From assembly GCA_050252455.1 (NCBI GenBank), contig JBFWKW010000006.1, forward strand, positions 926-64,925: a stretch of DNA of 64,000 bases, given 5' to 3'. The notes beneath the pieces are model-generated. The model was not told where the DNA came from. It was given only the letters and a program-made list of their open reading frames with translations, and did no database searches. Of this stretch, positions 9,614 through 61,388 are shown in pieces (the stretch's first letter is position 1; every line of letters starts with the position of its first letter). A program made the translations under genes and the position numbers. Source of the DNA: Campylobacterales bacterium. GTDB taxonomy: Bacteria; Campylobacterota; Campylobacteria; Campylobacterales; UBA6016.

Positions 9614-9665
9614 AATTTAAAACTTCCAATGCTACAATAAAACAAAAAAATCGAGTAATAAAAAT

Positions 9666-16043: not shown

Positions 16044-16059
16044 GGCGTCCTCCTTATGG

Positions 16060-27470: not shown

Positions 27471-27524
27471 TTGCTATTTGCCATATTTTTTGGCTACTTT
27501 TTTTATTTTATCTACAATTTTTCC

Positions 27525-41123: not shown

Positions 41124-42197
41124 CTATAATATCTCTTCTATTTTGTCTATGATGGCCTTGAAGCCGCACTCGCCGCGACAAAAATACTTTCTATTGTCCA
41201 TTTTTTTGCCGATTAGTTTTTTGGATAGCTCTAGCGCCTCATCTTCGCTGTTCGTCCAGTGCATAATGCCGTTTTGGATGAGGTATTGGTCGTGATATAG
41301 CCAAATTGAGCGGGTAGAAATAGTCGGCACACCATAATACACCGACTCCAAATTCATAGTACCACCGCCGCCGATGAACAGGTCAATAAACGGATAAAAC
41401 TCTTCCGGCTTTAGCTTCTCTTTTAGCACCGTGGCAATGTCGCCAAAATCTCTCTCCAGATATTCACTCTCATATCTAGGCATTATCACGATATTCACAT
41501 CCATCTCGGCCTTGAGCCTCGGGATGATGGAGTAAAGAAGTGGCAACTTCTCGCTCACATAGTGCGCCTTGTACTCCTCTTCCCTTACCATCACGGTCAT
41601 CTTGCCGTTGTCTATGCCGTATCTTTTTCTAAAGTCGTTTTTCTCTTCGGATTTAACATCTTTCATCCACAGGCACACATCCACAAAGTCATACGGGATT
41701 ATCTGCTCGTCACTCAGCGCCAGATTGGCAAACATCGAGCGAGGCATGATGTATGGATAAAAAAACAGCTTGGAGTACGGCAGAGTGAGCCTTGTCACGG
41801 GTGTGATGTTTTTTGGACTCTCAAGGTCACCAGGATATGTCACGGCGGGAGTGTCGTAGATATTAACAACCGGGATACCGATACCGAAAGCCACGTGTAC
41901 GCTATCTACGACGGCACCGCAGATGAGCACCTTTGGCACCCCTATCTGACGGAAAATATCCAAAAACTCTTTTTGACGGAAAATTCTAGCCTGAAACTTA
42001 TCCAAAAGCGTGCTACCGCCGTATTCACCGAGTACGGTATGCTCTATGCCGTTAAGCTCCAAAATCTCTTTCGCTTCGGTGTAGTGCGGGGCGTATCTGG
42101 TGGTTACGAATACTTTTTGACCCCTAGCTTGTAGCTCCGGAATCATCTTGCTAAAAAACATCGCATATTTAGGCGTGCCGACATCAATCCAAATCAT
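41124..42197 (-). CDS. DUF354-family protein (GT-B / 2-epimerase-like fold)
   Basis: 357 aa. The N-terminus 'MIWIDVGTPKYAMFF' is typical of DUF354 (PF04007) as I recall it. No assigned function. Confidence 0.6.
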   Translation of the reverse strand: MIWIDVGTPKYAMFFSKMIPELQARGQKVFVTTRYAPHYTEAKEILELNGIEHTVLGEYGGSTLLDKFQARIFRQKEFLDIFRQIGVPKVLICGAVVDSVHVAFGIGIPVVNIYDTPAVTYPGDLESPKNITPVTRLTLPYSKLFFYPYIMPRSMFANLALSDEQIIPYDFVDVCLWMKDVKSEEKNDFRKRYGIDNGKMTVMVREEEYKAHYVSEKLPLLYSIIPRLKAEMDVNIVIMPRYESEYLERDFGDIATVLKEKLKPEEFYPFIDLFIGGGGTMNLESVYYGVPTISTRSIWLYHDQYLIQNGIMHWTNSEDEALELSKKLIGKKMDNRKYFCRGECGFKAIIDKIEEIL

Positions 42198-43894
42198 ATA
42201 AGTTTTTTAAGCCTCTCATAAAAAAATATCCTGACATCCACGGTATCCTCGGCATCTCGCCCAAGTTCTCTCATCCATGCGATATCCGGTGCCTCAAAGC
42301 CTTTTTTGTCTTTTCTAAAGGCGATATCGTCGCCGATGTATCTTGCGAGTATTTTACGCAATAAAAACTTGCTGTAGCCGTTATGGAATTTGTATCCATT
42401 TGGCAAACTATGAGCAAACTCCACGATACGGTAGTCGGTAAATGGTGTTCTATTTTCCACGCCAAAGCGCATTGCATTGCGGTCTTCAAAGCGAAGCAAC
42501 ATCGGTAAATTGAATTTTACGGTATCGAGATAAAGCGCTTTTTGCGGACTGGGGACAAACTTTTCGAGTAGCAAATCATAGTTTGGATCATAATGTGGGA
42601 AAAGCTCTCTTATTTTTGCCAACGATTTTTTGTTATCGTCAATTATGAGCGATTTTTTAGCCTCTTTTGCCAATGCACACTTCACCCCAAGCGCATATTC
42701 GCCCTCGGCCGCATCGCCGTAGAGCGATACTCTATCTCTCAAATTTTGCTTATTTCGTGTCAAAAATCTAGCCGCATGATGGTAATAACCGCCGAAAAGC
42801 TCATCGGCCCCCTGCCCCGTGACCGCTACTTTGGAGTATTTGGATAACTCTTTAAAAACGGCATACTGCACAAAAGTGGAAAAACTCCTCGTCATGTCGG
42901 ATTGAGTCAATAGAAAATCATCCATTAGCTCTTTTAGCTCGTCTATGTGCGGCGATAGCTTGACTAGATTTAACCCAAACAGCTTTGCCACGATGTCCAT
43001 ATACTTGCTCTCATCGTTTGACGGATAAGATGGAAACACGGCGCCAAAATAACGCATATTTTTGTTGTTTTTTGCAAGAAGTGCGGCTAGTAGCGAGCTG
43101 TCTATACCCCCTGAAAGCAGTATCCCTACCTCAACATCGGAGCGAAGCCTAAGTAGTAGTGCGTCGTTTAGCAGCTCCTCAAATCCGTCGCACGCCCTCT
43201 CAAACTCTTTTTCGTCAAATTTTTTATTCGGCTCTTTACACCCATCAAGCTTCCAATATCGTTTGAGCGCTAGCTTGCCGCTTTTGGCGTCAAAGACGGC
43301 GTAATGCGCACTCGGCAGATGCTTTATACCCTTGTAAATAGTTGCTTCCGAGTAGTCATTGATATTAAAAAGTATAGAGTCACACAGTGTTTGCTCGTCA
43401 AACTCTAGCGAACAAATAGCCTTGAACGCTTTGATTTCAGAGGCAAAAAACAGCTTGCCGTCAGAGAGCTTGTAGTAAAACGGCTTGTTCCCCAGCCTGT
43501 CTCTTGCCATAAAAAGTTTTTTTGTCTTTTTGTCGTAAATACAAAACGCAAAATCACCGTTGAATTTGAGAAGAGCATCTGCGCCCCATTCTCTATAAGC
43601 CTTTAGCAGCACCTCGCTATCGCTTGAAGTGCGAAAAACTACGCCCCTACTTTGAAGCTCTCCCCTAATCTCTATGTAGTTGTATATCTCGCCGTTATAC
43701 ACGAGCACCAAATCCCCGTCAAACATCGGCTGTGACGCCTCATCGCTAAGGTCTATAATACTTAAACGATTGTGGGCTAACAACATATACTCGTCCGCAA
43801 AAATCCCGCTACCGTCGGGGCCTCTATGAGTCAGTGCATTTGAGGCTTTTTGGACAAGCTCTTTGCCGATATTTCCGCCGCAGATGGAGCACAT
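42194..43894 (-). CDS. asnB: asparagine synthase family amidotransferase, paralogue 2
   Basis: 566 aa. 'MCSICGG' Ntn Cys and PP-loop 'ILLSGGIDSS'. Confidence 0.85.
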   Translation of the reverse strand: MCSICGGNIGKELVQKASNALTHRGPDGSGIFADEYMLLAHNRLSIIDLSDEASQPMFDGDLVLVYNGEIYNYIEIRGELQSRGVVFRTSSDSEVLLKAYREWGADALLKFNGDFAFCIYDKKTKKLFMARDRLGNKPFYYKLSDGKLFFASEIKAFKAICSLEFDEQTLCDSILFNINDYSEATIYKGIKHLPSAHYAVFDAKSGKLALKRYWKLDGCKEPNKKFDEKEFERACDGFEELLNDALLLRLRSDVEVGILLSGGIDSSLLAALLAKNNKNMRYFGAVFPSYPSNDESKYMDIVAKLFGLNLVKLSPHIDELKELMDDFLLTQSDMTRSFSTFVQYAVFKELSKYSKVAVTGQGADELFGGYYHHAARFLTRNKQNLRDRVSLYGDAAEGEYALGVKCALAKEAKKSLIIDDNKKSLAKIRELFPHYDPNYDLLLEKFVPSPQKALYLDTVKFNLPMLLRFEDRNAMRFGVENRTPFTDYRIVEFAHSLPNGYKFHNGYSKFLLRKILARYIGDDIAFRKDKKGFEAPDIAWMRELGRDAEDTVDVRIFFYERLKKLI

Positions 43895-44998: not shown

Positions 44999-45936
44999 AA
45001 CTCATGCGATTCTACAGAAATACCAATAGGCACTGTCTTTCTGATATCAGAAACTATGGCTATCGAGCCTCTGGCATCCTCTAAGCCAAATCCGCCGCCG
45101 CCCAAAATATCCTCATAACTTCTGGTATGAAGGTCGGTAAAACCCTCCGAAAACTCAATCTCTTCGTTTGCCACTTTGATACTTCTAAAAGTCCTCTGCC
45201 CTTTTGCCTTTACTTCCTCCGGAATATAGTCATAATTTACGGACAAAAACCATTTTACGGTCGCATTTTTCAGCCTTAATATTCCCGCATTAGTATCTTT
45301 GGTTTTTATATGGACTATGTTTTCCAGCAAATCCCCAAATATCCAAGAGAGCATATCAAAAAAGTGTACACCGATATTTGAGGCTATGCCGCCGGACTTG
45401 CTTTCATCGCCTTTCCAGCTAACAAAATACCAATTGCCCCTTGATGTTAAATAGGTCAAATCTATGTCATATATCTTGCTTGGGTTTGCCGATAGCTCAG
45501 CGGCAACTTTCTCTTTTAGTGCTATTATTGCGGAATGTAGTCTTAACTGAAGTATCGTATATACTTTTTTATCGCTCTCTTTTTCTATGTCGGTGAGAGC
45601 GTCCAAATTCCAAGGATTGAGCACTAATGGTTTTTCACATATCGCATGAGCATTTGAACGCATGGCAAACCTAATATGTGCATCATGAAGATAGTTTGGC
45701 GAGCATATAGAAACATAGTCTATCTTTTGCCCGGCACGTCTTAATTTTTCTATATGCCTATCAAACCTCTCAAATTCAACAAAAAAATCCGCATTCGGGA
45801 AATAGCTATCTATAACCCCGACACTATCTTTTGGGTCAAATGCAGCAACAAGCGTATTACCCGTTTCTTTGATGGCTTTCATGTGACGAGGCGCTATGTA
45901 GCCTGCTGCACCTATGAGGGAAAATGACTTATGCAT
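44977..45936 (-). CDS. wbpB: UDP-N-acetyl-2-amino-2-deoxy-D-glucuronate 3-dehydrogenase-like (Gfo/Idh/MocA, short WbpB type)
   Basis: 319 aa. Matches recalled WbpB blocks: 'LIGAAGYIAPRHMKAIKETGN', 'DYVSICSPNYLH', 'ICEKPLV', 'LTYLTSRGNWY..SWKGD', 'IGVHFFDML', 'FSEGFTDLHT.SYE.IL'. Confidence 0.88.
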   Translation of the reverse strand: MHKSFSLIGAAGYIAPRHMKAIKETGNTLVAAFDPKDSVGVIDSYFPNADFFVEFERFDRHIEKLRRAGQKIDYVSICSPNYLHDAHIRFAMRSNAHAICEKPLVLNPWNLDALTDIEKESDKKVYTILQLRLHSAIIALKEKVAAELSANPSKIYDIDLTYLTSRGNWYFVSWKGDESKSGGIASNIGVHFFDMLSWIFGDLLENIVHIKTKDTNAGILRLKNATVKWFLSVNYDYIPEEVKAKGQRTFRSIKVANEEIEFSEGFTDLHTRSYEDILGGGGFGLEDARGSIAIVSDIRKTVPIGISVESHEFCKRVIS

Positions 45937-46690
45937 GCAAAACTCTCTCTAGTTCATTATATGTTGGGTATGTTATCAAAACAGCTCTATGCGGACCGTT
46001 AAACACAAAAAGGCTACCCGCACTTACGCCTCCAGCCCCTGCCTTAATAGCTTGGTCAAAATCACTTACCGCTCCAGCTCCGCCCAGCGCAACTACGGGT
46101 ATATCGACCGCTGCAGTCACGATATTTATAAGACGCAAATCATATCCGGACATTGTGCCGTCTTTGTCGACGGAATTTATAATAATCTCTCCAGCCCCAT
46201 ATGATTCCATTTCTTTTGCCAAACACACCGGATCAATGGAAGTTTTTTTTGTGCCACTGTGTGTGTAGCAAAAATATCCACCAAACAAACTTTTTTTTGC
46301 ATCTATTGAGCCAACTACGCTCTGGGAGCCATATACATCCGCTATCTCTCTAATAAGCGCACCATTGCCGACAGCATATGTATTAAGTATGATTTTTTCA
46401 AAGCCTATGGAGAAAAGCTTTTTGGCATCTTGTAGGCATGATATACCGCCTCCGTATGCAAGAGGCATAAAAGCCTCGGAAGCAATATCCCTAAGCAAAT
46501 CAAAATCCGGTGTTTTTCTATCATTTGTAGCCGATATATCCAGTATTATAAGTTCATCAACTTCTTTGTCATTAAATATCTTCACTGTATTTATAGGATC
46601 GCCAATGTATTGATGGTTTTTAAATTTTATCCCTTTATATAAGCCGCCTTTTTTTAAAAGAAGCGTTGGGATAACCCTGGTCTTTAGCAT
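45929..46690 (-). CDS. hisF: imidazole glycerol phosphate synthase cyclase-subunit homologue (WbuZ/HisF2 type, glycan amidino formation)
   Basis: 253 aa. 'RVIPTLLL', 'DELIILDI' and 'GAGEIIINSVDKDGT' blocks in glycan-locus context next to the wbpB-like gene. Confidence 0.85.
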   Translation of the reverse strand: MLKTRVIPTLLLKKGGLYKGIKFKNHQYIGDPINTVKIFNDKEVDELIILDISATNDRKTPDFDLLRDIASEAFMPLAYGGGISCLQDAKKLFSIGFEKIILNTYAVGNGALIREIADVYGSQSVVGSIDAKKSLFGGYFCYTHSGTKKTSIDPVCLAKEMESYGAGEIIINSVDKDGTMSGYDLRLINIVTAAVDIPVVALGGAGAVSDFDQAIKAGAGGVSAGSLFVFNGPHRAVLITYPTYNELERVLHA

Positions 46691-47301
46691 TCTAATTCCA
46701 TAAAATTTCTAAAAAGCTGCATACCAAACTTGTGGCTTTTTTCGGGATGGAATTGCATCCCGTATATATTTTTGCTGGATATTGCAGAGGCAAATTCATA
46801 GCCGTACATAGTAGCGCCGGCTACATTTTCATCCTTATCACATACATAGTGATAGGAATGGACGAAATAAAACCTCATTTCTTCCGGCATATCTGCAAAT
46901 AACGGTATATTTTTTTTAGGGTTTACTATATTCCATCCCATGTGCGGTATTTTTAGTTTGTTAGCATTATCTCCGAAATGAAACTTTTTTACATGCCCTT
47001 TTATGAGTCCAAGTCCTGGTAGACAGCCCTCCTCGCTAGAATCGGCAAGAAGTTGCATACCGAGACAAATCCCAAGTATTACCGCTCCGCTTTCGGCTTT
47101 TTGTTTAATAACACCTGTGAGACCTGAAGAATTTAGATTCGACATGCCGGTATCAAAAGCGCCGACTCCTGGAAGTATTATTTTGCTAGCGTCAAGTATT
47201 TCAGATGGATTTGATGATACCTTGGAATCGTATCCGACTTTTTTTATCATATTTTGGATTGAGCCTATATTGCCAAGACCATAGTCGACTATTATTGTCA
47301 C
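46684..47301 (-). CDS. hisH: glutamine amidotransferase subunit homologue (WbuY/HisH2 type)
   Basis: I prefer the GTG at 47301 ('(M)TIIVDYGLGNIGS'), which overlaps the upstream TGA, over the track ATG at 47331. Catalytic 'GICLGMQ' Cys and 'HSY'/'FHPEKS' His-Glu blocks. Confidence 0.85.
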   Translation of the reverse strand: MTIIVDYGLGNIGSIQNMIKKVGYDSKVSSNPSEILDASKIILPGVGAFDTGMSNLNSSGLTGVIKQKAESGAVILGICLGMQLLADSSEEGCLPGLGLIKGHVKKFHFGDNANKLKIPHMGWNIVNPKKNIPLFADMPEEMRFYFVHSYHYVCDKDENVAGATMYGYEFASAISSKNIYGMQFHPEKSHKFGMQLFRNFMELEC

Positions 47302-47990
47302 TCGAAATATTTCCGAAGTATATTTTCGCATATATCCAAATCATTGTGGCTATCTATGTCTATGCTTTTATCTGGGCTCATAGAAAATGGAATTGTTTTG
47401 TCCGTAAAAAAACTTTTATTCTTTAGAAATAAATCCGCCTTAACTATGTATATAGCCCCATTTGGCATGTAGGCCCTAGGCAGCGCCTGTCTTCTCATAA
47501 ATGGAGTTTTGTTGTCTACAAGACCTTGTAGGTATCCATTTTTTGACAATGTAAACATCTTATATGGGCTATGCGACGGCTCATAAACACTAATCAGTGA
47601 ATCCGCATCATGAGAAATAAAGTCAGAAATAGCATTATCTATATCAGCGGAATCGCGCAACGGAGATGTTGGCTGCAGCAAAACGATACTATCAAAATTG
47701 GAACCTTTTTTTGACAAATAATCTAGCGCATGAGAAACGGTTGGTTCCGTTGGTGCCTCGTCGGTAGCAAGCTCCGTAGGTCTTTTTATGCATTCTATAC
47801 CGTACTGATTCGCAATCCTAAGTATCTCGTCGCAATCAGATGAAACACATACAGAATCAATACTATTGGAATTCAATGCCGCTTCTATAGTCCATGCAAT
47901 AAGCGGCTTTCCGTGTAGCTGTGATATGTTTTTATTTACAATCCCCTTGGAGCCGCCTCTTGCCGGAATAACAGCTAGAAAGTTTTTCAT
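47298..47990 (-). CDS. neuA: acylneuraminate (nonulosonate) cytidylyltransferase family
   Basis: 230 aa. 'AVIPARGGSKGI.NKN' and 'LQPTSPLR' motifs of CMP-NulO synthetases. Neu vs Leg vs Pse specificity is not resolvable by eye. Confidence 0.85.
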   Translation of the reverse strand: MKNFLAVIPARGGSKGIVNKNISQLHGKPLIAWTIEAALNSNSIDSVCVSSDCDEILRIANQYGIECIKRPTELATDEAPTEPTVSHALDYLSKKGSNFDSIVLLQPTSPLRDSADIDNAISDFISHDADSLISVYEPSHSPYKMFTLSKNGYLQGLVDNKTPFMRRQALPRAYMPNGAIYIVKADLFLKNKSFFTDKTIPFSMSPDKSIDIDSHNDLDICENILRKYFE

Positions 47991-49355
47991 TTATACCGTC
48001 AGGTCGGAACTTAAGCCCGACATACTTCTCAGGTCGTCATACTTAATATCATCGCTCTCAATGGCATCTTTAAAAAATAGTTGGGCCAGCATCTCTTTGC
48101 GCTCCGCTCCGAACTCAGAGAGCGAAAATAACTCCCCGCTAATGCTATATTTTTGGAGAAACTCACCTACTTCATTTGGAACTGTAACCGTGTTTGCCCA
48201 TCTAATATTCACAAGATAAAAGCCATTTTCTTTTCTAAATCTAAGTCTTTTTGGAGCAGTAAATTTTGCATTGTTCTCTATAGCTCTATAAATCATAGGG
48301 TCATGCACTATCTTATACGGACGCACAAAGCTATCCTTGCCTGTCATAAAATTGTCTTGCCCGTTTAAATCACCGCTAAACGCATGCGCAGACATTCGAC
48401 ATCCTGTTTGGCAAATATCTATATAGTCACATCCCATACATCCCGGATATCTATAGCTCATATCATGCCAAGCATGCATCTTTTCATAACACTTATAAAT
48501 ACCGTCTTCAAATATATTTCCGTAAGCCTCTTCTTGATGTACGCATGCATGCGTATTGCCGTCAGCATTAAGACTTAAAATGTGTCCTGATTGAGCGGGG
48601 CATCCGCGACCGACAAAATCCCTGTATTTTTCAAGATCGCTGAGCAGGCACAGCGGATAGCTAACAAGCGTACCAATCATGATGCCTGTTTTCTCTTTCG
48701 CTGCAATAAGTTGGTCTACCGTCGAAAGAGCATCCTCTCTCGTTACTTTGAACTCTGATGCATTGGGATTGCATTCATTAATTGATGGAACCACCCTTGT
48801 GCCAAAAATTTTCTGGCAACCAAGAGAGTGTGCAAATAAAGCGGTATCATAAACATGCATTTTATTTCTTTCCGACACAATCATGTTCACACTAACCCTC
48901 ATATCATTTTTGATACAAGATTCTATACCGCTTACTATTTTATCAAAAGCACCGTCTTGATGTACCATATAATCGTTTGTTGCCCTATCATATGAATTTA
49001 GACTGGTAAGAATATGATCCAACCCGGCATCCCTGAGCCTCCTAATTTTATCATCCGTAGCAAGCATTAGATTGCTGTTGCAACTTATTGATATATTGTT
49101 GTCTACCAATTTTTTAAAGCCATACTCAAGAAGATCAAATCTAGCGAATGGTTCACCGCCTGTTAATACAACATGAAAAACACCGGCATCAACAAATTGC
49201 TCAATAAGCAAATCCATTTTTTCTTTTGTAAGGGAGCTAGACTTAGAACTATCCTCTCTCCAAAAGTTATAGCAATGCCTGCATTTAACATTGCAAACAT
49301 CGGTAATCTCCAAATTAACGACAGTTGGAGCACTAAATATTTTTTTTTCTCTCAC
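47991..49355 (-). CDS. radical SAM / SPASM-domain protein
   Basis: 'NLEITDVCNVKCRHC' CxxxCxxC. The C-terminal 'GCMGCDYIDICQTGC' matches the SPASM CX2CX5CX3C exactly. A GTG at 49355 with an AGAAGG SD 6-7 nt upstream avoids the 85-nt overlap implied by the track ATG at 49451. Confidence 0.8.
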   Translation of the reverse strand: MREKKIFSAPTVVNLEITDVCNVKCRHCYNFWREDSSKSSSLTKEKMDLLIEQFVDAGVFHVVLTGGEPFARFDLLEYGFKKLVDNNISISCNSNLMLATDDKIRRLRDAGLDHILTSLNSYDRATNDYMVHQDGAFDKIVSGIESCIKNDMRVSVNMIVSERNKMHVYDTALFAHSLGCQKIFGTRVVPSINECNPNASEFKVTREDALSTVDQLIAAKEKTGIMIGTLVSYPLCLLSDLEKYRDFVGRGCPAQSGHILSLNADGNTHACVHQEEAYGNIFEDGIYKCYEKMHAWHDMSYRYPGCMGCDYIDICQTGCRMSAHAFSGDLNGQDNFMTGKDSFVRPYKIVHDPMIYRAIENNAKFTAPKRLRFRKENGFYLVNIRWANTVTVPNEVGEFLQKYSISGELFSLSEFGAERKEMLAQLFFKDAIESDDIKYDDLRSMSGLSSDLTV

Positions 49356-49366
49356 GGTAAACCTTC

Positions 49367-50578
49367 TTAAACTATTTGATTTCTCAGTTTCCACATATCG
49401 CCATTTTTTTCCCACAAGTGCGGCGACCTGGCCTTGTTTATAATCTCCCAAAATTTATCTTCAGTAATATCCATATAGTTTAATATTTCACCAAGATATT
49501 TTGTAGGCAATTCGGAATCATATTTTTTAACCAAATAAACCCCTTCTTCTCTTGTTATTTTTCCGTTTCTAATCTCTTGTGCGGCATCATACGTGGCTCT
49601 ACCTATACCAAACTTTATGTATGTTGTATAGTAATGTAAAGGGTCTATTTTGTCGTCGATACTGCTATACTTGGAAAAACTACCCTCTGTCCTCTCCGTA
49701 TTTGACTGAAAGCCTGTATGCTCCGCCGCATAATAATAATTTTCTTGAGGATCCCAATTTAAGTAGTAGCTAATGTGATGAACCTCCGTTCCCACCTTTT
49801 TTAGTTTTTCACCGCTAACCGGCAAATAAGGGTTGAGGTCACTCAATCTTATATTGTGTTCTTCAGATATCTCTCTGGCAGACACTCCGCCCAAAAATAG
49901 GTTATCGATATTTGGTTCTTCTTCATAAAATTTTGGCAACATAGTAGGCCTGAACGCGCCATCCAGGTCATCACCATATTCTGCGGCATGCTCACCATAA
50001 AATACAAGCGGGATTTCATAAAGGGCAGAAAACCTAGCGGCAAGCATTTTTTGCCCTATTATAAACGGCTGAAAAGGGTGGCATAAATTTTCAAAAGCAA
50101 GCTTTGTGAGCAGTCTATGTACTTTTCCATTTGGGGTCACGAGTATATTGTCAAAACCAGAATCTATCCAACTATGAAAATTCCTAAAGCCTATATCGGT
50201 ATACATATGCGGAGACCAAGTCACAGTCAGCGGGTTCATGTTGTATTTAAACTTCAAAATATGAGACACGAAGGCACTATCTTTCCCGCCGCTACCGGGT
50301 ACTATGCAGTCGTAAGAGCCATCGCTTTTTCTATATCTATTGCACAACTCAACAAGTTCTTTTTCTCTCTCTTCCCAATTCATTTTGTTCCGCTTTATCT
50401 CTGCATACTTACAAGCACTACATACACCGTCTTCATCAAAAAAAATAGTTGGCTTTTTGCCGTTTGCCGTATTTTTAAACTCAACGACGGAGCCCGGTCT
50501 TTGATTTGACATAACGCATTTTTTGCAAAATTTTACCTCGCTGGGTAGTCCATAATAAGCGGTTAAATTATTTGTCAT
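49367..50578 (-). CDS. N-acetyl sugar amidotransferase (PP-loop; PseA/flagellin-modification type, TIGR03573-like)
   Basis: 403 aa. N-terminal Zn-ribbon 'CKKCVMSNQRP...CSAC' and PP-loop 'IVPGSGGKDS'. Confidence 0.8.
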   Translation of the reverse strand: MTNNLTAYYGLPSEVKFCKKCVMSNQRPGSVVEFKNTANGKKPTIFFDEDGVCSACKYAEIKRNKMNWEEREKELVELCNRYRKSDGSYDCIVPGSGGKDSAFVSHILKFKYNMNPLTVTWSPHMYTDIGFRNFHSWIDSGFDNILVTPNGKVHRLLTKLAFENLCHPFQPFIIGQKMLAARFSALYEIPLVFYGEHAAEYGDDLDGAFRPTMLPKFYEEEPNIDNLFLGGVSAREISEEHNIRLSDLNPYLPVSGEKLKKVGTEVHHISYYLNWDPQENYYYAAEHTGFQSNTERTEGSFSKYSSIDDKIDPLHYYTTYIKFGIGRATYDAAQEIRNGKITREEGVYLVKKYDSELPTKYLGEILNYMDITEDKFWEIINKARSPHLWEKNGDMWKLRNQIV

Positions 50579-51230
50579 TGCGATTCCTTGTACATATATC
50601 TATAAAGTTTTTGATTATCATGAGCCCATACTTGCCGCTCTTTTCTGGGTGGAACTGGCACCCGTAAATATTATCTTTTTTCACGGCCGAACAGAATGAA
50701 ATCCCAGCATAATTAGTCACCGACAAGATGCTCCTTTTGTCATTCGGAACAGCCGCATAGCTGTGTACAAAATACATATCTTCTTCGTTATTTAAATCAT
50801 TAAATATAGTGTCGCCCCAATCTGCATAAGCAGTCTTCTTGATTCCATTCCAGCCTATATGCGGCAGTTTGCCGTAAAAGTCGACAGGAAAACTATCCAG
50901 CCTGCAAACCCTGCCGTTAATCAACCCGAGTCCATTGGACATGCCAAACTCTTCACTCTCGTCAAAAAGAAGTTGCATACCTAGACATATGCCAAGTATG
51001 GGTCTACCACTGTGTGCAAACTCTATAATCGGCTTTACAAGATTTAAATCTAGCAAATTTTGCATACCATGAGCGAATGCTCCAACCCCGGGGACCACAA
51101 GACCGTCTGCTGTTTCTATCTCATGAGCGTTGCGCGTTAATATCGGAATAGTGCCATTTTTTTCAAACGCACCGTTAATGCTGCGTATATTGCCGACTCC
51201 GTAGTCCAAAACGGCAATTTTGCAACTCAT
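50568..51230 (-). CDS. hisH: glutamine amidotransferase subunit homologue (HisH-like), set 1
   Basis: 220 aa. 'IAVLDYGVGNIRSI', 'GICLGMQ', 'VHSY' and 'FHPEKS' blocks. Confidence 0.88.
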   Translation of the reverse strand: MSCKIAVLDYGVGNIRSINGAFEKNGTIPILTRNAHEIETADGLVVPGVGAFAHGMQNLLDLNLVKPIIEFAHSGRPILGICLGMQLLFDESEEFGMSNGLGLINGRVCRLDSFPVDFYGKLPHIGWNGIKKTAYADWGDTIFNDLNNEEDMYFVHSYAAVPNDKRSILSVTNYAGISFCSAVKKDNIYGCQFHPEKSGKYGLMIIKNFIDICTRNRNDK

Positions 51231-51988
51231 ATCCTTACCCCAACACCAAGCGCTCCAATTCCTGACTTAATCACACCGATTGATTCTATTTCATAATGCA
51301 AGACAGAAGCTAACGCTACGGCGTTTATATTTTTTTGCACAGACAATAACTTCTCTATATCAGACAGGCTACCGGCACCCCCACTAGCTATGACCGGTAT
51401 AGACACGGAGTCACATACGCTAGAGTACAATTCCAAATCAAACCCCTTTTTTGTCCCTTCCATATCGACCGATGTGAGCATAATCTCGCCAGCGCCAAGA
51501 TGCTCTACTTTTTTGGCCCACTCCAGCACATCCAAACCGGTAGGCTCTCTGCCGTTATCTATATATGCTTCCCATTTATCTTTGGATATTTTCTTTGCGA
51601 CTATAGACGAAACTATACACTGGGAGCCGAACACGCGAGATGCCTCCTCTATAAAAGCAGGGTTTTTTACGGCTTGCGTATTTATGGCTACCTTATCGGC
51701 ACCAATGCTCAATGCAAGTTTGATATCTGCTATGCTTCTAATCCCGCCGCCTACGGTGATTGGTACAAATATGTTTTTGCATGCCTTTTCTATAATATCG
51801 CCCAAACTATTTCTATCATAATAGGCCGCCACGGCATCCATAAAAATTATCTCATCTATACCTTGCTCGTAATACCTTAGAGCCATTTCATTTGGATTGC
51901 CGACCTTTCGCAGACCCTCCAAATGTATTCCTTTTATGACATATTCATTTTTAACATCTATTCTTGCAATAACCCTAAATTTGCTCAT
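51227..51988 (-). CDS. hisF: cyclase subunit homologue (HisF-like), set 1
   Basis: 253 aa. 'RVIARIDVK', 'DEIIFMD', 'GGGIRS' and 'GAGEIMLTSVDMEGT' blocks. Confidence 0.88.
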   Translation of the reverse strand: MSKFRVIARIDVKNEYVIKGIHLEGLRKVGNPNEMALRYYEQGIDEIIFMDAVAAYYDRNSLGDIIEKACKNIFVPITVGGGIRSIADIKLALSIGADKVAINTQAVKNPAFIEEASRVFGSQCIVSSIVAKKISKDKWEAYIDNGREPTGLDVLEWAKKVEHLGAGEIMLTSVDMEGTKKGFDLELYSSVCDSVSIPVIASGGAGSLSDIEKLLSVQKNINAVALASVLHYEIESIGVIKSGIGALGVGVRI

Positions 51989-53129
51989 TTGACCCTAGTT
52001 CCATAAACTGCTTTTGATGTTTTATATTCCAAAGATTATCAGTGTTAAGTATTTCAAAAAACATTTTATCGCTATTGCCGTCACCAAAACGCCCTGACAT
52101 ATTTGCAGCGCTACATCCATGTCCGCTATATTTTATAGCTAGCGATATTGAATTTAGAATATCGATCTTCTCATATGATGAATGAAATATAGAGGGAAGT
52201 TTCGCCCTGTTCATTTGTCTGGTTCCTATATCGACCGCAGGAACATCATAATAATGAGCCTCTCTAATACCTGCGCTAGAGTTTCCTATGATGAAATCAG
52301 CATACATCAGAAGAGATAGGAAATATTCAAATCTAATTGACGAGAATATTCTAAATGAAGAATTACCTTCAAGCCTCCTGTATTCCTCCAGTATCTCCAT
52401 GCTGCCAAGGTCATTATTGGGATATATCACTATATATTTTTTTTTACTTTCCAGCAATGCATCTACAAAATTTTTTACATGCTCCCTGATCATTCTATAT
52501 TCCGTAGTAACCGGATGAAACATAGCTATTGCGTAGCTATCAAACTCAAGATCGTAATATCTTTTTACATCATCTATATTGGTCAGCTTCTCCGGATTCA
52601 TTAAGTCTAAGTCTGGCGAGCCTATAACAAATATAGAATTTTGATTCTCACCAAGCTGAATAAGCCTTCTTCTTGCCTCTTCATTGGCCACAAAGTGCAC
52701 ATGCGACAGCTTGCTTACGGCATGCCTAATCAGCTCATCCACAGTACCTGATATTTCTCCGCCCTCTATATGGGCAACAAGCACATTATTAAGGCTTCCG
52801 ACGATGGCGCCGGCCATAGCCTCAACCCTGTCGCCATGCACGACTATAAGGTCTGGTTCTATCTCGCTTATGTATTTTGAAAAACCATCTATCGTCTTTG
52901 CCAATGTTCTATCCATATGCTCAACGATATCGTGGTTTATGAATTGGTATATATTCTTAAAGCCGGACTTGTATATTTCGTCAACAGTTTTGCCATATTT
53001 TGAATTTATATGCATACCCGTGGCAAATATATGCACATCAAAACAGCTGGAAGACTGGGTAATCCTAATCAACGATTTCAGTTTTCCAAAATCAGCCCTA
53101 GTGCCGGTTAAAAATACTATTTTCTTCAT
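51975..53129 (-). CDS. neuC: UDP-N-acetylglucosamine 2-epimerase (hydrolysing), NeuC/LegG type
   Basis: 384 aa. 'FLTGTRADFGKL', 'VHGDR.E' and 'AHIEGGE.SGT.DE..RH..SKLSH.HF' blocks of TIGR03568-type enzymes. Confidence 0.88.
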   Translation of the reverse strand: MKKIVFLTGTRADFGKLKSLIRITQSSSCFDVHIFATGMHINSKYGKTVDEIYKSGFKNIYQFINHDIVEHMDRTLAKTIDGFSKYISEIEPDLIVVHGDRVEAMAGAIVGSLNNVLVAHIEGGEISGTVDELIRHAVSKLSHVHFVANEEARRRLIQLGENQNSIFVIGSPDLDLMNPEKLTNIDDVKRYYDLEFDSYAIAMFHPVTTEYRMIREHVKNFVDALLESKKKYIVIYPNNDLGSMEILEEYRRLEGNSSFRIFSSIRFEYFLSLLMYADFIIGNSSAGIREAHYYDVPAVDIGTRQMNRAKLPSIFHSSYEKIDILNSISLAIKYSGHGCSAANMSGRFGDGNSDKMFFEILNTDNLWNIKHQKQFMELGSNEQI

Positions 53130-53791
53130 TTGACTATATATGCTATAGCATTTGAATATCTAAGTTTTTTTATCTCTATATTATTTCCAAAATAATCATC
53201 TATTGCCTTATTTGCACCGGCAAATGCGCCGTAATCGTCAAAAACAACAACGCCGCCTTTTACTACTTTGTCAAACAAACACTCTATTGACATTTTTGTA
53301 GCCTCATATATATCAACATCGATATGAAGCAATGATATCTTTAGTTGTGGATTTGCGGCTATATATTCAGGGAGTGTTTTTGCTATATCGCCCTTAATAA
53401 TTTCAATATTTTGATTTAGTTTTTGCGTATCAAGTATACAGTTTAACTCTTCTATAGAAATTCCTACGCCACCATTTGTTTCCTCTATGAACTTAAGCCT
53501 GCTTTCTTTGTCGTTTTCAAAATCAGTATCCGGAAACTCTCCAAACATATCAAATGCAATTATCTTTCTACTATATGTATTTTCAAGTAAATCTCTAAAT
53601 TTAATCCATCTAAAAAGCGAGTTTCCCTTGAAAACACCAAGCTCAACTATCTCACCCCTTAATTCTGAGGTCATCTCAAAGAACTTTAAGTGGCTTACAA
53701 ATTTACTAAACCTATTAGTTCCAGCGGTGGCATAAAAGCCGTTTTCATATTCAAATTTTTTATCAATATTGTAAAGCATATCTAACCTCAA
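53126..53791 (-). CDS. TylF/MycF-like class I SAM-dependent methyltransferase
   Basis: 221 aa. 'IVELGVFKGNS' SAM motif and the 'LLHIDVDIYEAT'...'VVFDDY' metal/acid motif typical of macrocin-O-methyltransferase-like proteins. Confidence 0.7.
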   Translation of the reverse strand: MRLDMLYNIDKKFEYENGFYATAGTNRFSKFVSHLKFFEMTSELRGEIVELGVFKGNSLFRWIKFRDLLENTYSRKIIAFDMFGEFPDTDFENDKESRLKFIEETNGGVGISIEELNCILDTQKLNQNIEIIKGDIAKTLPEYIAANPQLKISLLHIDVDIYEATKMSIECLFDKVVKGGVVVFDDYGAFAGANKAIDDYFGNNIEIKKLRYSNAIAYIVK

Positions 53792-55176
53792 GTTTGTCTA
53801 AAACCTCGGAACGAGGAATTTCTATCAACATACAAATCACTTAACTGTCGTAGCATATTTTCGTGCTGTCTTTTAAGATAATTGTCCAAAAGCATTTTAT
53901 TGGCCTCCATTAAAGCCGCATAAAATTCATCATCGCTCATATCCGTAAAATTAACGGATAGTAAATCAGAGTTAGTATGCTTATGTTCGTAAAAATCTTC
54001 TATATCTTTTAACTTCCCGTCCGCAATAGCTTTATAATACAGCGGCGAGCCTGGATATGGCGTGACAGGCCTAATTGTTCTCATCTGTGCGCCGTCGTCA
54101 TATTTAAGAAGAAATTCTACCCCCTTCATTAGGGTTTCTTTTGTTTCGCCTATATTCCCGAATATAATATTAAACCCCGGACTAATTCCTTCCGCCAAAG
54201 TAGCCTCAATTCCCTTTGTTATTTGTTTGGTGTTAAGAGCTTTATTCATATTTTTTAACGCCACGTCATCATAAGACTCTATCCCGTAATTAATAAAAAC
54301 ACATCCTGCTTTTTTCATCAGCTTCAATACTTCCGGCGAAGCATAATTTAATCTACCGTTGCAAAACCATTTGATATTCAATCTTGCTTTGATTATATCT
54401 TCGCACAACTCAATCGTTCTTTGCTTGGAAGACATAAGAAGCTCATCGTTAAACACTATATAGGTAATACCGTAGTTTTTAATTAAAAATTTAATTTCTT
54501 CAATAATAGACTCATTGCTCCTACCCCTAAAGCCCTTGTCCATTCTATAACAAAAGTTGCATGTAAATGTACAACCTCTGCCAGACAATATTGGCATAAC
54601 AAAATCTGTTTTGGAGCATTTAGGCATTCTAATAAGCCTATAGTGATGAACATTGAATTTTTCATATGCAGGCATCTGAATAGAATCCACATCTTCTATC
54701 AGCGGTCTTGCCTCATTAATATGAACTTGCCCGTTTTTTAAATATGCCATCCCTTTGACATTTTCAAAACCAAGTCTATTATCAAGATTGTGGAGCAGTT
54801 CAATTATTGTTCTCTCTCCTTCTCCCATAACAACGGCATCTGCGTTGAGTTTTTTCAAGAAATAACCCGGGTCTGGGCTTGGACCAAAACCGCCTATTAT
54901 AAAAAATGGCCTTTGTCTTGATTCGTTAATTGCATTTGATATTTTAATGGCTTTTCTATATTCGTAGTAACCGCCTATAAAACTTAGACCCACGACATCG
55001 TAATGCTCATTATTAAGAAGCTCCGTGAGATGTTCTTCCGGGTAGTGATGGATATCCTGTTCATATATATCAACCTCATGTCCGCTCGAGATCAATACCG
55101 CCGTTATATATGCCATCCCTTGCGGAAACCATTGCACCAATGACTCGTTATCATATGTTATTAATAAAATTCTCAC
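53788..55176 (-). CDS. cobalamin(B12)-binding-domain radical SAM protein
   Basis: 462 aa. N-terminal Rossmann-like B12-binding region and 'SGRGCTFTCNFC' CxxxCxxC. Confidence 0.82.
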   Translation of the reverse strand: MRILLITYDNESLVQWFPQGMAYITAVLISSGHEVDIYEQDIHHYPEEHLTELLNNEHYDVVGLSFIGGYYEYRKAIKISNAINESRQRPFFIIGGFGPSPDPGYFLKKLNADAVVMGEGERTIIELLHNLDNRLGFENVKGMAYLKNGQVHINEARPLIEDVDSIQMPAYEKFNVHHYRLIRMPKCSKTDFVMPILSGRGCTFTCNFCYRMDKGFRGRSNESIIEEIKFLIKNYGITYIVFNDELLMSSKQRTIELCEDIIKARLNIKWFCNGRLNYASPEVLKLMKKAGCVFINYGIESYDDVALKNMNKALNTKQITKGIEATLAEGISPGFNIIFGNIGETKETLMKGVEFLLKYDDGAQMRTIRPVTPYPGSPLYYKAIADGKLKDIEDFYEHKHTNSDLLSVNFTDMSDDEFYAALMEANKMLLDNYLKRQHENMLRQLSDLYVDRNSSFRGFRQT

Positions 55177-55177
55177 A

Positions 55178-56239
55178 TTACTTCACTATATTGAAATTTT
55201 CTACATCCGCCATTTTAACATGTTGATCTGCCGCTATGTCAATCAAGGCTCTTTTGCCATGCAAATCAAAATAAAACTCTGCGGGTATCTCACCAACACC
55301 TGGTCTTTTTACCCAAGTATTGCTTTCATTAAAAGTCTCCCCTTTTGATATATTACGAGTTGTAACCACCGTAGCAAAAGCAAAGTCCATTGTTACCTGC
55401 TCTTCCGGAAGCAGAGCCTTGGCGCCACCTCTCATTTTTGCAAGCTCTATACTACCGCTTATCAACTCTTTTAGTGCCACAGGATCCATGGAATTGACTA
55501 TATCAGGACCAACTCTATCCATTCTATCTGTAAAATGCCTTTCTAGTATGGACGCCCCAAGTGCAACAGCCCCAAAACATGCAAGATTTGATGTTGTGTG
55601 GTCTGATAAGCCTATAACGGCTTTCGGAAATACCTCTTGCAGCTGAACCATCGCCCCAAGTCTTACCAAATGCGACGGTGTGGGATATAGATTTGTGGTA
55701 TGAAGCAGTGCATACTGTATATTATATTTTTCCATTATTGCAACCGCTTTTGAAACAGAGTCAATAGTATTCATGCCGGTGCTAACTATCATCGGTTTTC
55801 CAAATCTCGCTATGTGCTCTATTAGCGGATAGTTATTGCACTCTCCTGAGCCTATTTTGTATGCCAATACACCCATTTTCTCTAGCCTATCGGCTGCGGC
55901 ACGAGAAAAAGGAGTACTAATAAATACCATTCCGCGAGACTCAACATGCTGTTTTAGCGCAAGCTCGTCTTTTTCGTCAAGAGCACATTTTTGCATTATT
56001 TCATATATAGATATACTAGCATTACCGGGGATTACTTGTTTTGCGGCAGCACTCATTTCGTCTTCCACTACATGTGTCTGATGCTTGATAAACTCGGCTC
56101 CACTTTTCCATGCTGCGTCAACCATTTCTATTGCCGTCTCAAGGGAGCCGTTATGGTTTATGCCCAGTTCTGCAATAACAAGAGGGTCAAAGTCATATCC
56201 TATTTTTCTGCCGGCTATTTCTATAAACTTTTCAGACAA
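55178..56239 (-). CDS. neuB: N-acetylneuraminate synthase family (NeuB/LegI type) with C-terminal SAF domain
   Basis: 353 aa. '[11 protein letters not shown]', 'KHQTH' and 'GLSDHT' blocks, plus a C-terminal SAF/antifreeze-like domain. Confidence 0.9.
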
Positions 56240-56248
56240 ACCATACCC

Positions 56249-57346
56249 CTACTTGTAAAAATTATCTTTTAAAATTTCAATATACCTACGAGTCTGTAAA
56301 TTTAAATCCAATATTATAGATAAATGCTTAGTTTGCTCAATATCGTATTTAATATTTAAAGCTTTAGCAAAAACGCCAGAAAGCTCCGATTCATTCTCAA
56401 ATAAAATTCCGTTTACATCTTTTTTTATAAATTCTGCATTATTCGGTATATCTTTGGCTATTACAATTTTGCACGCAGCCATTGACTCTAAAATACTTTG
56501 CGACAACCCATCTGTGTCTGTATAGCTAATTACATAATCACTCAAATGAATAGCCTCATGCATAAACTCATGCGGGATATGAGCAAAAAATATATCGTCC
56601 ACAAATCTGGTTTTACCAACAATCTCTATGATATCTGCCATATATTTAGGGTCGGCGTTGGAGGTGGAAATAAGCAAAATAGCATCGCTACCGGTTTGTT
56701 TTTTGAAATCCAAAAACGATTCCACTATTTCACGCTTGTGGTAAAATCTGTTCATTGACCTAATGCAAAAAAAAATTTTTCTATTATTTTTTTTAGAGGC
56801 AAGCCAATCCATATAGGTAAAAGTCTTTGAATGGTTTGCAAATCTATTTTCAACGCCCCAGCTTATAATTTTTATTTTTTCCTTATCTAGTTTGTCAAAG
56901 TTTGACAGTAGCATTTCTTTCATATACTCCGATTTAACGGTAATCAACTTACATCTTCTCAGCAACAAATATGTAAAAAACTTTTTCCAGCCACCCGCAT
57001 CCTGCTTGCCATCTATATCGCCGCCCATAGTGTGAACGATTATTTTTTTAGCAAACAAAGACAAGGCAAGACATTGCCAAATTCTACTTGCCCAGTGAAC
57101 CACTATAAGCCTTGGACGATACCTCAAAATAAGCCAAAAAGTGAAAATGGCATTTACAAGATAGCGCAATGTGCGATTTTTGAAACAGTGCGGCTTTATA
57201 ATCTTAAACTCGCTTTTCAAAACTTCTTTGCAATCTGCATTTGCAACTACGATAAGCTCGTCGTCTAGCTCTTTAAGCATAGCTATGCGAGGTGGTATTA
57301 GTGGGCTATTTACATCACCAAAAGCCAAAATCACTCTACAATCCAA
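56249..57346 (-). CDS. glycosyltransferase, GT-B fold (GT4-like)
   Basis: 365 aa. C-terminal E-x7-E-type block 'DGLSQSILESMAACKIVIA'. Confidence 0.7.
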   Translation of the reverse strand: MDCRVILAFGDVNSPLIPPRIAMLKELDDELIVVANADCKEVLKSEFKIIKPHCFKNRTLRYLVNAIFTFWLILRYRPRLIVVHWASRIWQCLALSLFAKKIIVHTMGGDIDGKQDAGGWKKFFTYLLLRRCKLITVKSEYMKEMLLSNFDKLDKEKIKIISWGVENRFANHSKTFTYMDWLASKKNNRKIFFCIRSMNRFYHKREIVESFLDFKKQTGSDAILLISTSNADPKYMADIIEIVGKTRFVDDIFFAHIPHEFMHEAIHLSDYVISYTDTDGLSQSILESMAACKIVIAKDIPNNAEFIKKDVNGILFENESELSGVFAKALNIKYDIEQTKHLSIILDLNLQTRRYIEILKDNFYK

Positions 57347-60293: not shown

Positions 60294-61388
60294 TCATATT
60301 TTCATTTTTTTGATTATTTTTCCGATAGCAAAATATAATCCCTGCTCTGTTCCATAGCAATCATGTTGCTTTATATTAGATGACATATATTTCTCAAAGT
60401 CCTGAGCTGACAATCCAAGCTTTTTACATACAAAATCCATATCTGTTTTTAAATCTATTTCGGATGGATAAGCTATGCCCCTTAACTTCTCCAAAGCTTC
60501 ATCCCTATTCATCTGTCCGGTGCATATAAGAGTTGAAAAATGAAGTTTTCTTTTATCTATGCCAAATTTATTCGGCAATATGTACCCTTGATAAAATCTG
60601 GTAAATATAGATTCATAATGCTTGTAAGGGTATGGTTTAAAAGCAAACTCTTTTTGCAAAAAAGCCATGGCCTCATTTTTATTATAATCTACAAAGTCCA
60701 AAAAAGATATCCATTCTATCTTTTTGACAAACTTGTAATAGTTATACTTTAGAACACTAAAATACGGAAAAGTTTTGCTTTTTACGGTGCCAAATTCTGA
60801 GTGAATGCTTCTTATATTCTTTGCGTCAAATTTAAACCAATTCCACCCATTCGGCATAGCTATTCCTTCGGTTGAACTGTTTGAGCCTGACAGAATATAC
60901 TTAATGCCATACTTTGACGCTTGCGAATAATTTACAGCTAACATGGCATTATCATATAGCAATTCCAAATCTATAACGCCGGCTTTCAAAAAAGCAAGTA
61001 GCATATCTCTGTATTCATCCCAATTTATAACATGCGTGTACAAGTCCACGCCTAGTTTTTCAACTAGATTGGCTATATTGTTTACAGCCAATTCGCTATT
61101 AAATCCATTGTCCATATGCACAGCCAGCGGCCTAAGCCCAACGCTTTTTGCAAGATACAATGAGTAGGAGCTATCTACTCCGCCGCTAACGCCGACGATA
61201 CAGTCATAAGGTTTTCCTTTGCCATCCCTCTTTACCTTCTCCGCAAACAGCCTAAGCTCATTATTTCCAATAGCATTATGAATTGATATTTTTTTCATAA
61301 AATCTGAGCAAAAATTGCACTCCCCTTGCTCATTAAATACTATATTTTTAGCACTTGTATCCATGACACATCTAGAGCATTGATTCAT
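60294..61388 (-). CDS. N-acetyl sugar amidotransferase (PP-loop; WbpG/WbuX type, TIGR03573-like)
   Basis: 364 aa. 'CSRCVMDTS...CNFC' Zn-ribbon and PP-loop 'VGVSGGVDSS'. Confidence 0.82.
   Translation of the reverse strand: MNQCSRCVMDTSAKNIVFNEQGECNFCSDFMKKISIHNAIGNNELRLFAEKVKRDGKGKPYDCIVGVSGGVDSSYSLYLAKSVGLRPLAVHMDNGFNSELAVNNIANLVEKLGVDLYTHVINWDEYRDMLLAFLKAGVIDLELLYDNAMLAVNYSQASKYGIKYILSGSNSSTEGIAMPNGWNWFKFDAKNIRSIHSEFGTVKSKTFPYFSVLKYNYYKFVKKIEWISFLDFVDYNKNEAMAFLQKEFAFKPYPYKHYESIFTRFYQGYILPNKFGIDKRKLHFSTLICTGQMNRDEALEKLRGIAYPSEIDLKTDMDFVCKKLGLSAQDFEKYMSSNIKQHDCYGTEQGLYFAIGKIIKKMKI

Follow-up and report, generated by a model that had tools for sequence, protein, structure and literature searches.

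We describe here a radical S-adenosylmethionine (SAM) enzyme with a SPASM region, encoded on the minus strand of a 64,000-nucleotide stretch of a Campylobacterales genome (contig JBFWKW010000006.1; this whole stretch is called the window below), at positions 47991-49355. The gene lies in an operon for nonulosonic acids (NulOs), and the enzyme most probably tailors a nonulosonic (sialic-acid-like) or related ulosonic or nucleotide sugar, either at the free-acid stage or after activation with cytidine monophosphate (CMP). That its substrate is a sugar or a sugar nucleotide is the reading that we favour, with moderate confidence. The same kind of substrate had been put forward in an original prediction made from the letters of the window. 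The NulO context of the gene speaks for that proposal, while the full SPASM region, a C-terminal domain resembling peptide-recognition folds and kin linked to peptides qualify it; the prediction had also overlooked a methyltransferase as the partner of the enzyme.

The context of the gene was surveyed in one genome per species, which yielded 47 loci with homologues of at least 43% identity, 44 of them used in the neighbour counts. Open reading frames (ORFs) were called and clustered, and recurrent neighbours within 10 kb were described by hidden Markov models. The hosts include Omnitrophica, Planctomycetia, Pelagibacteraceae, Prochlorococcus, Azospirillum, Magnetospirillum and Nitrospinota, as well as Krumholzibacteriota, Latescibacterota, Desulfobacteraceae, Dehalococcoidia and one Thermoplasmata archaeon. 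Across these phyla the protein is conserved over its full length (43-72% identity), with no truncations in long contigs. Thirty-six loci, from more than ten phyla, are flanked by 4 kb or more on both sides, and in 34 of them a NeuB-type synthase, a CMP-synthetase of the CTP_transf_3 type, or both, lie within 10 kb; counted separately, each of the two was found in 32 of the 44 loci. Within the same distance NeuC (12/44), DegT (9/44) and WbuX (9/44) are much less constant than these NulO-level genes, which associates the enzyme with the stage of ulosonic-acid formation and CMP activation and not with one particular hexosamine pathway. Precomputed Pfam annotation revealed the same NulO context in four further contigs (L050-L053 in our numbering of loci).

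The other recurrent partner is a methyltransferase, directly adjacent to the gene in 24 of the 44 loci and present at any position within 10 kb in 37. The adjacent ones are either TylF-family proteins or a class-I Methyltransf_11 protein of 315 aa. Four families have been recruited, namely TylF, two class-I Methyltransf_11-type families (of about 305-315 aa and about 439 aa) and a Methyltransf_13/14 family of the NDP-hexose C-methyltransferase type, a variety that suggests a chemical coupling and not a protein-specific one. One arrangement among the four further contigs is TylF, target, CTP_transf_3, NeuB. In Ca. Wunengus the target follows a TylF gene, a B12-binding radical SAM gene and a gene of unknown kind, and is itself followed by TylF, CMP-synthetase and NeuB. 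The pair of TylF and target genes of Maridesulfovibrio hydrothermalis stands beside formyltransferase and deacetylase genes and near kdsA, kdsC and lptC. Intermediates of 37-40% identity also occur in sugar contexts, again with an adjacent methyltransferase; one has a Methyltransf_11 gene together with a formyltransferase gene, and another a Methyltransf_13/14 gene of the NDP-hexose C-methyltransferase type together with RmlA/RmlC-like genes.

Candidates for a peptide substrate were sought in the same loci. After clustering of the 20-80-aa ORFs within 6 kb of the gene, nothing was recurrent save an antisense artefact and a small gene for an XRE-like helix-turn-helix (HTH) protein. A scan of about 50 family loci for Cys-rich ORFs found none adjacent to the gene; the same scan recovered precursors in three of three loci of a sister clade discussed below. 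No sulfatases were seen in the survey loci. The original prediction had held that a neighbourhood of precursor peptides or sulfatases would speak against a sugar substrate, and homologues of at least 43% identity are instead found amid sugar genes, with neither sulfatases nor any recurrent small ORF. Two neighbourhood clusters (c19 and c25) were discarded as antisense ORFs of high-GC genomes, and a "small ORF family" from three loci proved to be antisense to the 5' end of the target gene itself.

Some of these loci showed features of their own. The XRE-like HTH protein, of about 78-100 aa, is encoded directly upstream of the target homologue in the alphaproteobacterial loci L025, L026, L027, L036 and L047 (Pelagibacteraceae and Magnetospirillum). 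Beside the target homologue in L050 (11170-13470) and L051 (10799-13048) there is a NeuB-type synthase fused to AP_endonuc_2, a xylose-isomerase-like TIM barrel, in a protein of 749-766 aa, and the NeuB associated with the gene in L052 and L053 is short (about 290 aa) and devoid of the SAF domain. Transketolase-like genes split into N and C halves were observed in two NulO loci with a target homologue, L050 (2321-3154 and 1383-2324) and L052 (2981-4767), which may point to the transfer of two-carbon units in the sugar pathways concerned.

In the window, the upstream neighbour of the radical SAM gene encodes a WbuX-type N-acetyl sugar amidotransferase, which forms acetamidino groups (49367-50578, minus strand; TIGR03573, 362 bits against a cutoff of 203), at a distance of 11 nt. 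Downstream, a gene for a CMP-nonulosonate cytidylyltransferase of the CTP_transf_3 type abuts it with 0 nt of spacing (47298-47990, minus strand; Pfam E 8e-26, the best NCBIfam match being PseF with 158 bits, under its cutoff). Both flanks are sugar-nucleotide enzymes and are spaced as the original prediction had stated. The same operon, still on the minus strand, includes a hydrolysing 2-epimerase of the NeuC/LegG type (51975-53129; TIGR03568, 407 bits against a cutoff of 236), a TylF-family sugar O-methyltransferase (53126-53791; Pfam TylF E 4e-21) and a NeuB-type nonulosonate synthase (55178-56239; Pfam NeuB E 5e-66; TIGR03569, 370 bits). The best PDB relative of the TylF protein is CalS11, a TDP-rhamnose 3'-O-methyltransferase acting at the nucleotide-sugar level (E 8e-16).

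Between the NeuB and TylF genes lies a second radical enzyme of the operon, a B12-binding radical SAM protein (53788-55176, minus strand; Pfam B12-binding and Radical_SAM), with relatives within 10 kb in 16 of the 44 loci. The enzyme could be a C-methylase of the nonulosonic acid, and it may bear on the unexplained +14 Da and C10 CMP-ulosonic acids of Magnetospirillum gryphiswaldense.

The operon is part of a larger glycan island (35968-64000), in which amidotransferases are unusually numerous. This island carries three AsnB-type amidotransferase genes (35968-37743, 42194-43894 and 57336-59108), two WbuX/PP-loop genes (49367-50578 and 60294-61388), two HisH/HisF pairs (50568-51988 and 45929-47331), three methyltransferase-type genes and a DUF354 gene, with no flagellin or Maf genes in view. 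Base composition is mosaic across positions 32001-64000, with a GC content of 0.35-0.40 at 44-64 kb and of 0.46-0.51 at 32-44 kb, suggesting that the island was assembled from horizontally acquired modules.

The ORF of the target gene extends from 47991 to 49451 on the minus strand, with a mechanical start at TTG 49451, from which it would reach 85 nt into the upstream gene. Translation most probably begins at GTG 49355, for a protein of 454 aa. This codon is preceded by the ribosome-binding site AGAAGG and lies 11 nt past the stop of the upstream gene; its product is identical in length and sequence to a database protein (P0001) from a Campylobacterales metagenome-assembled genome, and agrees with the N-termini of 29 homologues. 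The Pfam matches of the protein are the generic Radical_SAM (PF04055; E 1e-23, 84.7 bits against a cutoff of 29.5) and Fer4_12 only. The Pfam SPASM model (PF13186) has no match in it even at E <= 10, and is matched by 17 of 30 family members, the best at 5e-8.

At the level of the family the SPASM assignment holds, and most of the SPASM signature is seen in the cysteines. The CX3CX2C motif CNVKCRHC (C21, C25, C28; 49272-49295), the predicted binding site of the radical-SAM [4Fe-4S] cluster, is invariant in 30 close homologues and kept in 127-128 of 128 distant ones. It is followed by an extra invariant cysteine, C236, in YPLC (48648-48650), present in all close relatives and in 128 of 128 distant ones. 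Next comes a first SPASM half-motif, CX13GX4C (C252, G266, C271; 48543-48602), inside the family-specific signature DFVGRGCPAQSG, and then a second half-motif, CMGCDYIDICQTGC, with an exact CX2CX5CX3C spacing (C306, C309, C315, C319; 48399-48440); all these elements are on the minus strand. Among 30 homologues of 49-71% identity no change is seen in any of the ten cysteines (C21, C25, C28, C236, C252, C271, C306, C309, C315 and C319), and the 128 full-length representatives of 24-48% identity keep them all save C21, kept in 127. The GGEP segment G66-G67-E68-P69, which is the SAM-binding GGE motif, is also invariant in an alignment of close and distant relatives.

The original prediction had pointed to CNVKCRHC and to the exact CX2CX5CX3C, and both are present with invariant cysteines; its strand had gone unstated and the CX13GX4C half-motif had been missed. 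Loss of the auxiliary-cluster cysteines on careful alignment, which it had named as contrary evidence, was looked for, and these cysteines are strictly conserved. The final "gap-C" (eighth) cysteine of canonical SPASM regions is missing, as no cysteine follows C319, and C236 may be a candidate for the fourth ligand of an auxiliary cluster in place of the absent "gap-C". The motifs are not due to chance, given the Pfam Radical_SAM match, the profile match through the PqqE SPASM region and the invariant cysteines. Judged from these residues, the radical SAM scaffold, with three predicted clusters of which two would be auxiliary iron-sulfur clusters, is intact.

How such an enzyme could act on a sugar can be sketched as follows. 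The radical-SAM cluster would reductively cleave SAM to a 5'-deoxyadenosyl radical, which would take a hydrogen from a sugar carbon or from an N-acyl or side-chain substituent. The auxiliary clusters could then accept or return an electron, leading to a net two-electron oxidation (keto/enol), an epimerisation or a new C-X bond. The SAM-dependent methyltransferase would act on the same intermediate, either methylating the new nucleophile or installing the methyl group for the radical enzyme. The winged-helix domain at the C-terminus would have been inherited from a maturase ancestor bearing a RiPP recognition element (RRE; RiPPs being ribosomally synthesized and post-translationally modified peptides) and then remodelled (N383/R385/W386/N388, G447), and its presumed task would be to bind the sugar nucleotide or a partner protein where a leader peptide was bound before. 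At the end of the pathway would stand a surface nonulosonic acid in modified form. NulOs have been found amidinated, formylated and methylated already as CMP-sugars, and O-methylated and C10 CMP-ulosonic acids of environmental bacteria are unexplained (bioRxiv 10.64898/2026.04.20.719630).

Several observations weigh against a sugar as the substrate, and some of them come from the C-terminal domain. The conserved C-terminal 110 residues adopt a beta-beta-beta-alpha-alpha-alpha topology in AlphaFold2 (AF2) models, with the core of the winged helix at residues 372-428 (48072-48242, minus strand; pLDDT of the models 88.8 and 82.3). When this domain was searched in isolation, the top Foldseek matches were RREs, namely McbB, TbiB1 with its leader peptide and the RRE of PbtF (TM 0.55), followed by LynD, TruD, ThcOx, NisB, MibB and MccB. 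Each of these matches is weak, with E values of 0.05-1 and all above 0.01 (the best being 0.046, at a probability of 0.96), and Pfam PqqD has no match in any of the 30 family members. The predicted structure thus resembles an RRE-like, that is, a peptide-recognition fold. R374 and E376 of the domain are invariant throughout the clade. They were considered as a sign of a fixed sugar ligand and dropped, because they are equally conserved in the peptide-linked sister clade and so provide no argument for a sugar.

That sister clade, found by a search with a representative of 30% identity, consists mostly of Patescibacteria, and three of its contexts were examined. In all three, the radical SAM gene of these relatives (25-33% identity) is followed by small Cys-rich ORFs, Cys/Asp-repeat precursors, so that the relatives are evidently peptide maturases. 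In L056 the precursor is encoded at 9315-9521 (MASQIISLVDEEQAVGTCDNCDTCDTGANCDNCDGCDTCDNGANCDNCD...), with a second similar ORF at 9636-9776; in L054 it is encoded at 9384-9539 (...AACDNNGGGCDNSGCDICQSGCEGGTDGCDGSTG); in L055 (9428-10448) a Peptidase_MA_2 gene is followed by a Pro/Cys-rich ORF of 97 aa. The cores of the precursors are CDNCD/CDTCD/GCD repeats, and a Peptidase_MA_2 gene is present in two of the three loci. By its sequence this looks like an undescribed RiPP system, made up of a SPASM enzyme with a C-terminal RRE-like domain and its precursors. The proteins of this clade share with the target all ten cysteines, the C-terminal domain and R374/E376. On the other hand, N14, H61, D113, H114, R153 and the DFVGRGCPxQ segment are invariant in the family without being so in the far sisters, which lack the family-invariant N383/R385/W386/N388 of the beta2-beta3 hairpin of the RRE-like domain (family-specific motif N383-x-R385-W386-x-N388) and the tail motif with G447. 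The tail, residues 429-454 (47994-48071, minus strand), is predicted to be disordered from residue 444 (pLDDT < 50 for 444-454). Its motif, [KR]-x-G-[LV]-S-x-[DN], with G447 invariant in the family, is missing in the peptide-linked sister clade (alignment columns ~455-480) and may serve for docking, as a cis-substrate or as a lid.

Other contrary points concern what is known of relatives and hosts. There is no characterised member of the family and no ligand-bound structure, and the solved or curated relatives aligned through the SPASM region are peptide or protein enzymes (PqqE, SuiB, anSME) or assigned to tetrapyrroles (NirJ2/AhbD), none of them acting on a sugar. In the window, the methyltransferase gene is five genes away from the radical SAM gene and not adjacent to it. 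Moreover, no close orthologue was detected in Magnetospirillum gryphiswaldense, Kuenenia or C. jejuni, which have methylated NulOs, and a search with the orthologue from Magnetospirillum sp. 64-120 returned no named M. gryphiswaldense orthologue. O-methylation alone therefore needs no such enzyme, and the methylated or C10 sugars of these three organisms are not attributable to it.

Taken together, the RRE-like C-terminal domain and the precursor-linked relatives of 25-33% identity are most simply read as the trace of a lineage of peptide maturases, equipped with a C-terminal RRE, that gave up its peptide and was drawn into nucleotide-sugar/NulO pathways. A bolder version, which we regard as possible and on balance doubtful, is that an RRE-bearing SPASM lineage of RiPP type was exapted to CMP-NulOs and, with an obligatory methyltransferase, performs radical chemistry new to sialic-acid-like sugars, such as C-C or C-branch formation, chain extension or oxidation-enabled C-/O-methylation. 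If true, it would explain some of the unassigned NulO masses (C10 and +14 Da CMP-ulosonic acids) of environmental bacteria, and the enzyme would be the first full-SPASM enzyme on a nucleotide sugar, with a peptide-recognition domain repurposed for a sugar nucleotide.

The distant relatives also set a limit on the original argument that, with no room for a precursor ORF beside the gene, a sugar is the simplest substrate to assume. No recurrent or Cys-rich small ORF was found at the family loci, in agreement with it, but the distant relatives do neighbour precursors, and a peptide or protein substrate is thus not dismissible by a lack of room. The enzyme could still be a maturase whose RRE-like domain docks a segment of a protein encoded elsewhere or in the island (a glycan-carrying surface protein, a pathway enzyme or the methyltransferase), forming a thioether or an epimerised or oxidised residue, with the sugar genes linked to it only through the place of the target protein in the glycosylation system. 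We think this unlikely, even though the top fold matches of the beta-beta-beta-alpha-alpha-alpha domain are RREs, the sister clade keeps both the architecture and the cysteines with Cys/Asp-repeat precursors directly downstream, every solved SPASM-aligned relative acts on a peptide or protein, and the conserved disordered tail with G447 could itself be a cis-substrate or docking peptide. No recurring protein that could be the substrate turned up in about 50 loci, be it a conserved small ORF, a Cys-rich ORF or a sulfatase. Among the hosts are Pelagibacter, Prochlorococcus and an archaeon, whose surface proteins differ greatly. Adjacent methyltransferases drawn from four families run contrary to a specific protein-protein maturation. 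As for the domain, the RRE matches all have E values above 0.01, there is no Pfam PqqD match, and the substitutions W386, R385, N383 and N388 do not occur in the peptide-linked sisters.

A sugar pathway could also be involved without the sugar skeleton being touched, if the enzyme modified a substituent (N-acetyl, acetimidoyl or other N-acyl, through C-H functionalisation followed by a methyl cap) or a lipid-linked or polymerised glycan. Known NulO diversity does reside mostly in the N-acyl groups, according to data on C. jejuni and Kuenenia (bioRxiv 10.64898/2026.04.20.719630). Moreover, genes for amidination (WbuX/HisH/HisF) accompany the gene in the window, as they do in about nine further loci (for example as target-TylF-WbuX), and formyltransferase and deacetylase genes adjoin it in others. 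The constant partners are nevertheless NeuB, the CMP-synthetase and the methyltransferase; WbuX occurs in just nine of the 44 loci and no enzyme forming an N-acyl group is universal. The sequence does not discriminate between skeleton and substituent, and we rate this alternative as distinctly unlikely. Far less probable, to the point that we give it hardly any weight, is that the gene is an inactive or structural remnant, for example a decayed maturase that travels with a mobile glycan island. The mosaic composition of the island and the failure of the window protein to reach the Pfam SPASM threshold would fit a remnant, but the cluster ligands and GGEP are all invariant, full-length identity stays at 43-72% across phyla with no truncations in long contigs, and the gene has a good ribosome-binding site and tight operon spacing.

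Pathogens and the most abundant marine bacteria alike carry nonulosonic acids on their flagella, capsules, lipopolysaccharide (LPS) and S-layers, and recognition by the immune system, adsorption of phages and the charge of the surface all depend on the fine structure of these sugars. That a radical enzyme is conserved together with a methyltransferase in organisms as far apart as Pelagibacter, Prochlorococcus, sulfate reducers and an archaeon implies a NulO modification that is widespread and chemically uncharacterised. If the substrate is indeed a sugar nucleotide, the reaction scope of SPASM enzymes, a class known mostly for peptides, would be widened, and descent from an RRE-containing peptide maturase would be a clear case of substrate-class switching. 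The sugar hypothesis is directly testable, as CMP-NulOs are now profiled by mass spectrometry.

Outside the island, the window contains other radical SAM genes. On the minus strand, a NifV-like homocitrate synthase (14925-16079) stands beside a NifB-like radical SAM protein with a Nitro_FeMo-Co domain (16060-17469), and this pair of predicted genes indicates a capacity for nitrogenase-cofactor biosynthesis in this Campylobacterales genome. On the plus strand, a B12-binding radical SAM gene with DUF4080 (26019-27470) is in tandem with a radical SAM gene with an HHH_3 motif (27471-28721).

In the literature on radical SAM enzymes with nonulosonic or pseudaminic acids and on SPASM enzymes with nucleotide sugars, we found no paper describing the target family. 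Phase-variable radical SAM genes with no assigned function are listed in a paper on C. fetus, and a paper on Legionella LPS reports an uncharacterised radical SAM gene, "ORF 13-c". An exhaustive profile search retrieved 743 cluster representatives at E <= 1e-30, and the curated NCBIfam cutoffs were reached neither by the target nor by ten sampled representatives of the wider clade. The closest known relatives, PqqE, NirJ2/AhbD, SuiB and anSME, are at 15-19% identity. The AF2 model (pLDDT 88.8, pTM 0.89) has a radical SAM and SPASM fold with a partial TIM barrel and superposes on SkfB, SuiB, PqqE, anSME and TigE (Foldseek E ~1e-12, 15-19% identity), and a search of PDB sequences with the family profile gave alignments that start at the N-terminus and take in the SPASM region for PqqE (E 4e-19), SuiB and anSME.

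PqqE (6c8v) is the best profile match of solved structure, covering residues 4-335 from CX3CX2C through the whole SPASM region, and shares the overall fold (Foldseek E 2e-12). It differs in sequence, however (about 18% identity; TIGR02109, 69 bits against a cutoff of 381), and works with a separate PqqD-type RRE, whereas the RRE-like domain of the target is fused at the C-terminus. The target is also without a PqqA-like peptide or pqq genes nearby and stands in a nonulosonic-acid cluster. Maturases of ranthipeptides, sactipeptides and streptide (CteB, PapB, SkfB, SuiB) combine radical SAM, SPASM/twitch and RRE modules, as the target would, and are among its top fold matches; in these enzymes the RRE is N-terminal. 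Unlike them, the target family has no precursor peptide, occurs in sugar clusters and possesses signature residues of its own. As for anSME (TIGR03942), it is not among the 25 best NCBIfam matches listed, its PDB match scores 31 bits, and no sulfatase was seen in any locus.

NirJ2, AhbD, AhbC and NirJ are SPASM enzymes with a small-molecule substrate instead of a peptide. They provide the best NCBIfam matches (NirJ2 97 bits over residues 13-334 and AhbD 90 bits, against cutoffs of 500), and their names assign them to tetrapyrrole pathways (heme d1 and heme b). The target scores far below those cutoffs, has no genes for heme d1 or alternative heme synthesis nearby, and carries a C-terminal winged-helix domain which these families lack.

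The twitch radical SAM enzymes BtrN, SpeY, HygY and NeoN act on aminoglycoside sugars or cyclitols, oxidising or epimerising carbohydrate C-H positions with the help of an auxiliary cluster. They have a single auxiliary cluster, belong to antibiotic pathways and are devoid of an RRE-like domain. BtrN had been cited by the original prediction as precedent, and this part did not hold: BtrN was not retrieved among PDB sequences at E <= 0.001 by either single sequence or profile, and the target, a full SPASM protein, comes closest to PqqE, NirJ/AhbD and RiPP maturases. With its two-cluster cysteine set, its surface-glycan NulO setting and its RRE-like domain, it resembles the BtrN type by functional analogy only. 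BlsE, a cytosylglucuronate decarboxylase (7vob) that acts on a cytosine-nucleoside sugar acid, is the best PDB match to the single sequence (E 6e-12), with similarity limited to the radical SAM core (residues 15-165) and the SPASM region unaligned. The genetic pairing with a SAM-dependent methyltransferase-fold protein has parallels in TunB/TunM and C10P/C10Q, pairs of a radical SAM enzyme and a methyltransferase-like partner, of which the tunicamycin pair builds a higher-carbon sugar; this too is an analogy, with no homology implied. Compared with all these systems, the target is best placed in a SPASM family of its own, new and uncurated, whose substrate class is likely to be new as well.

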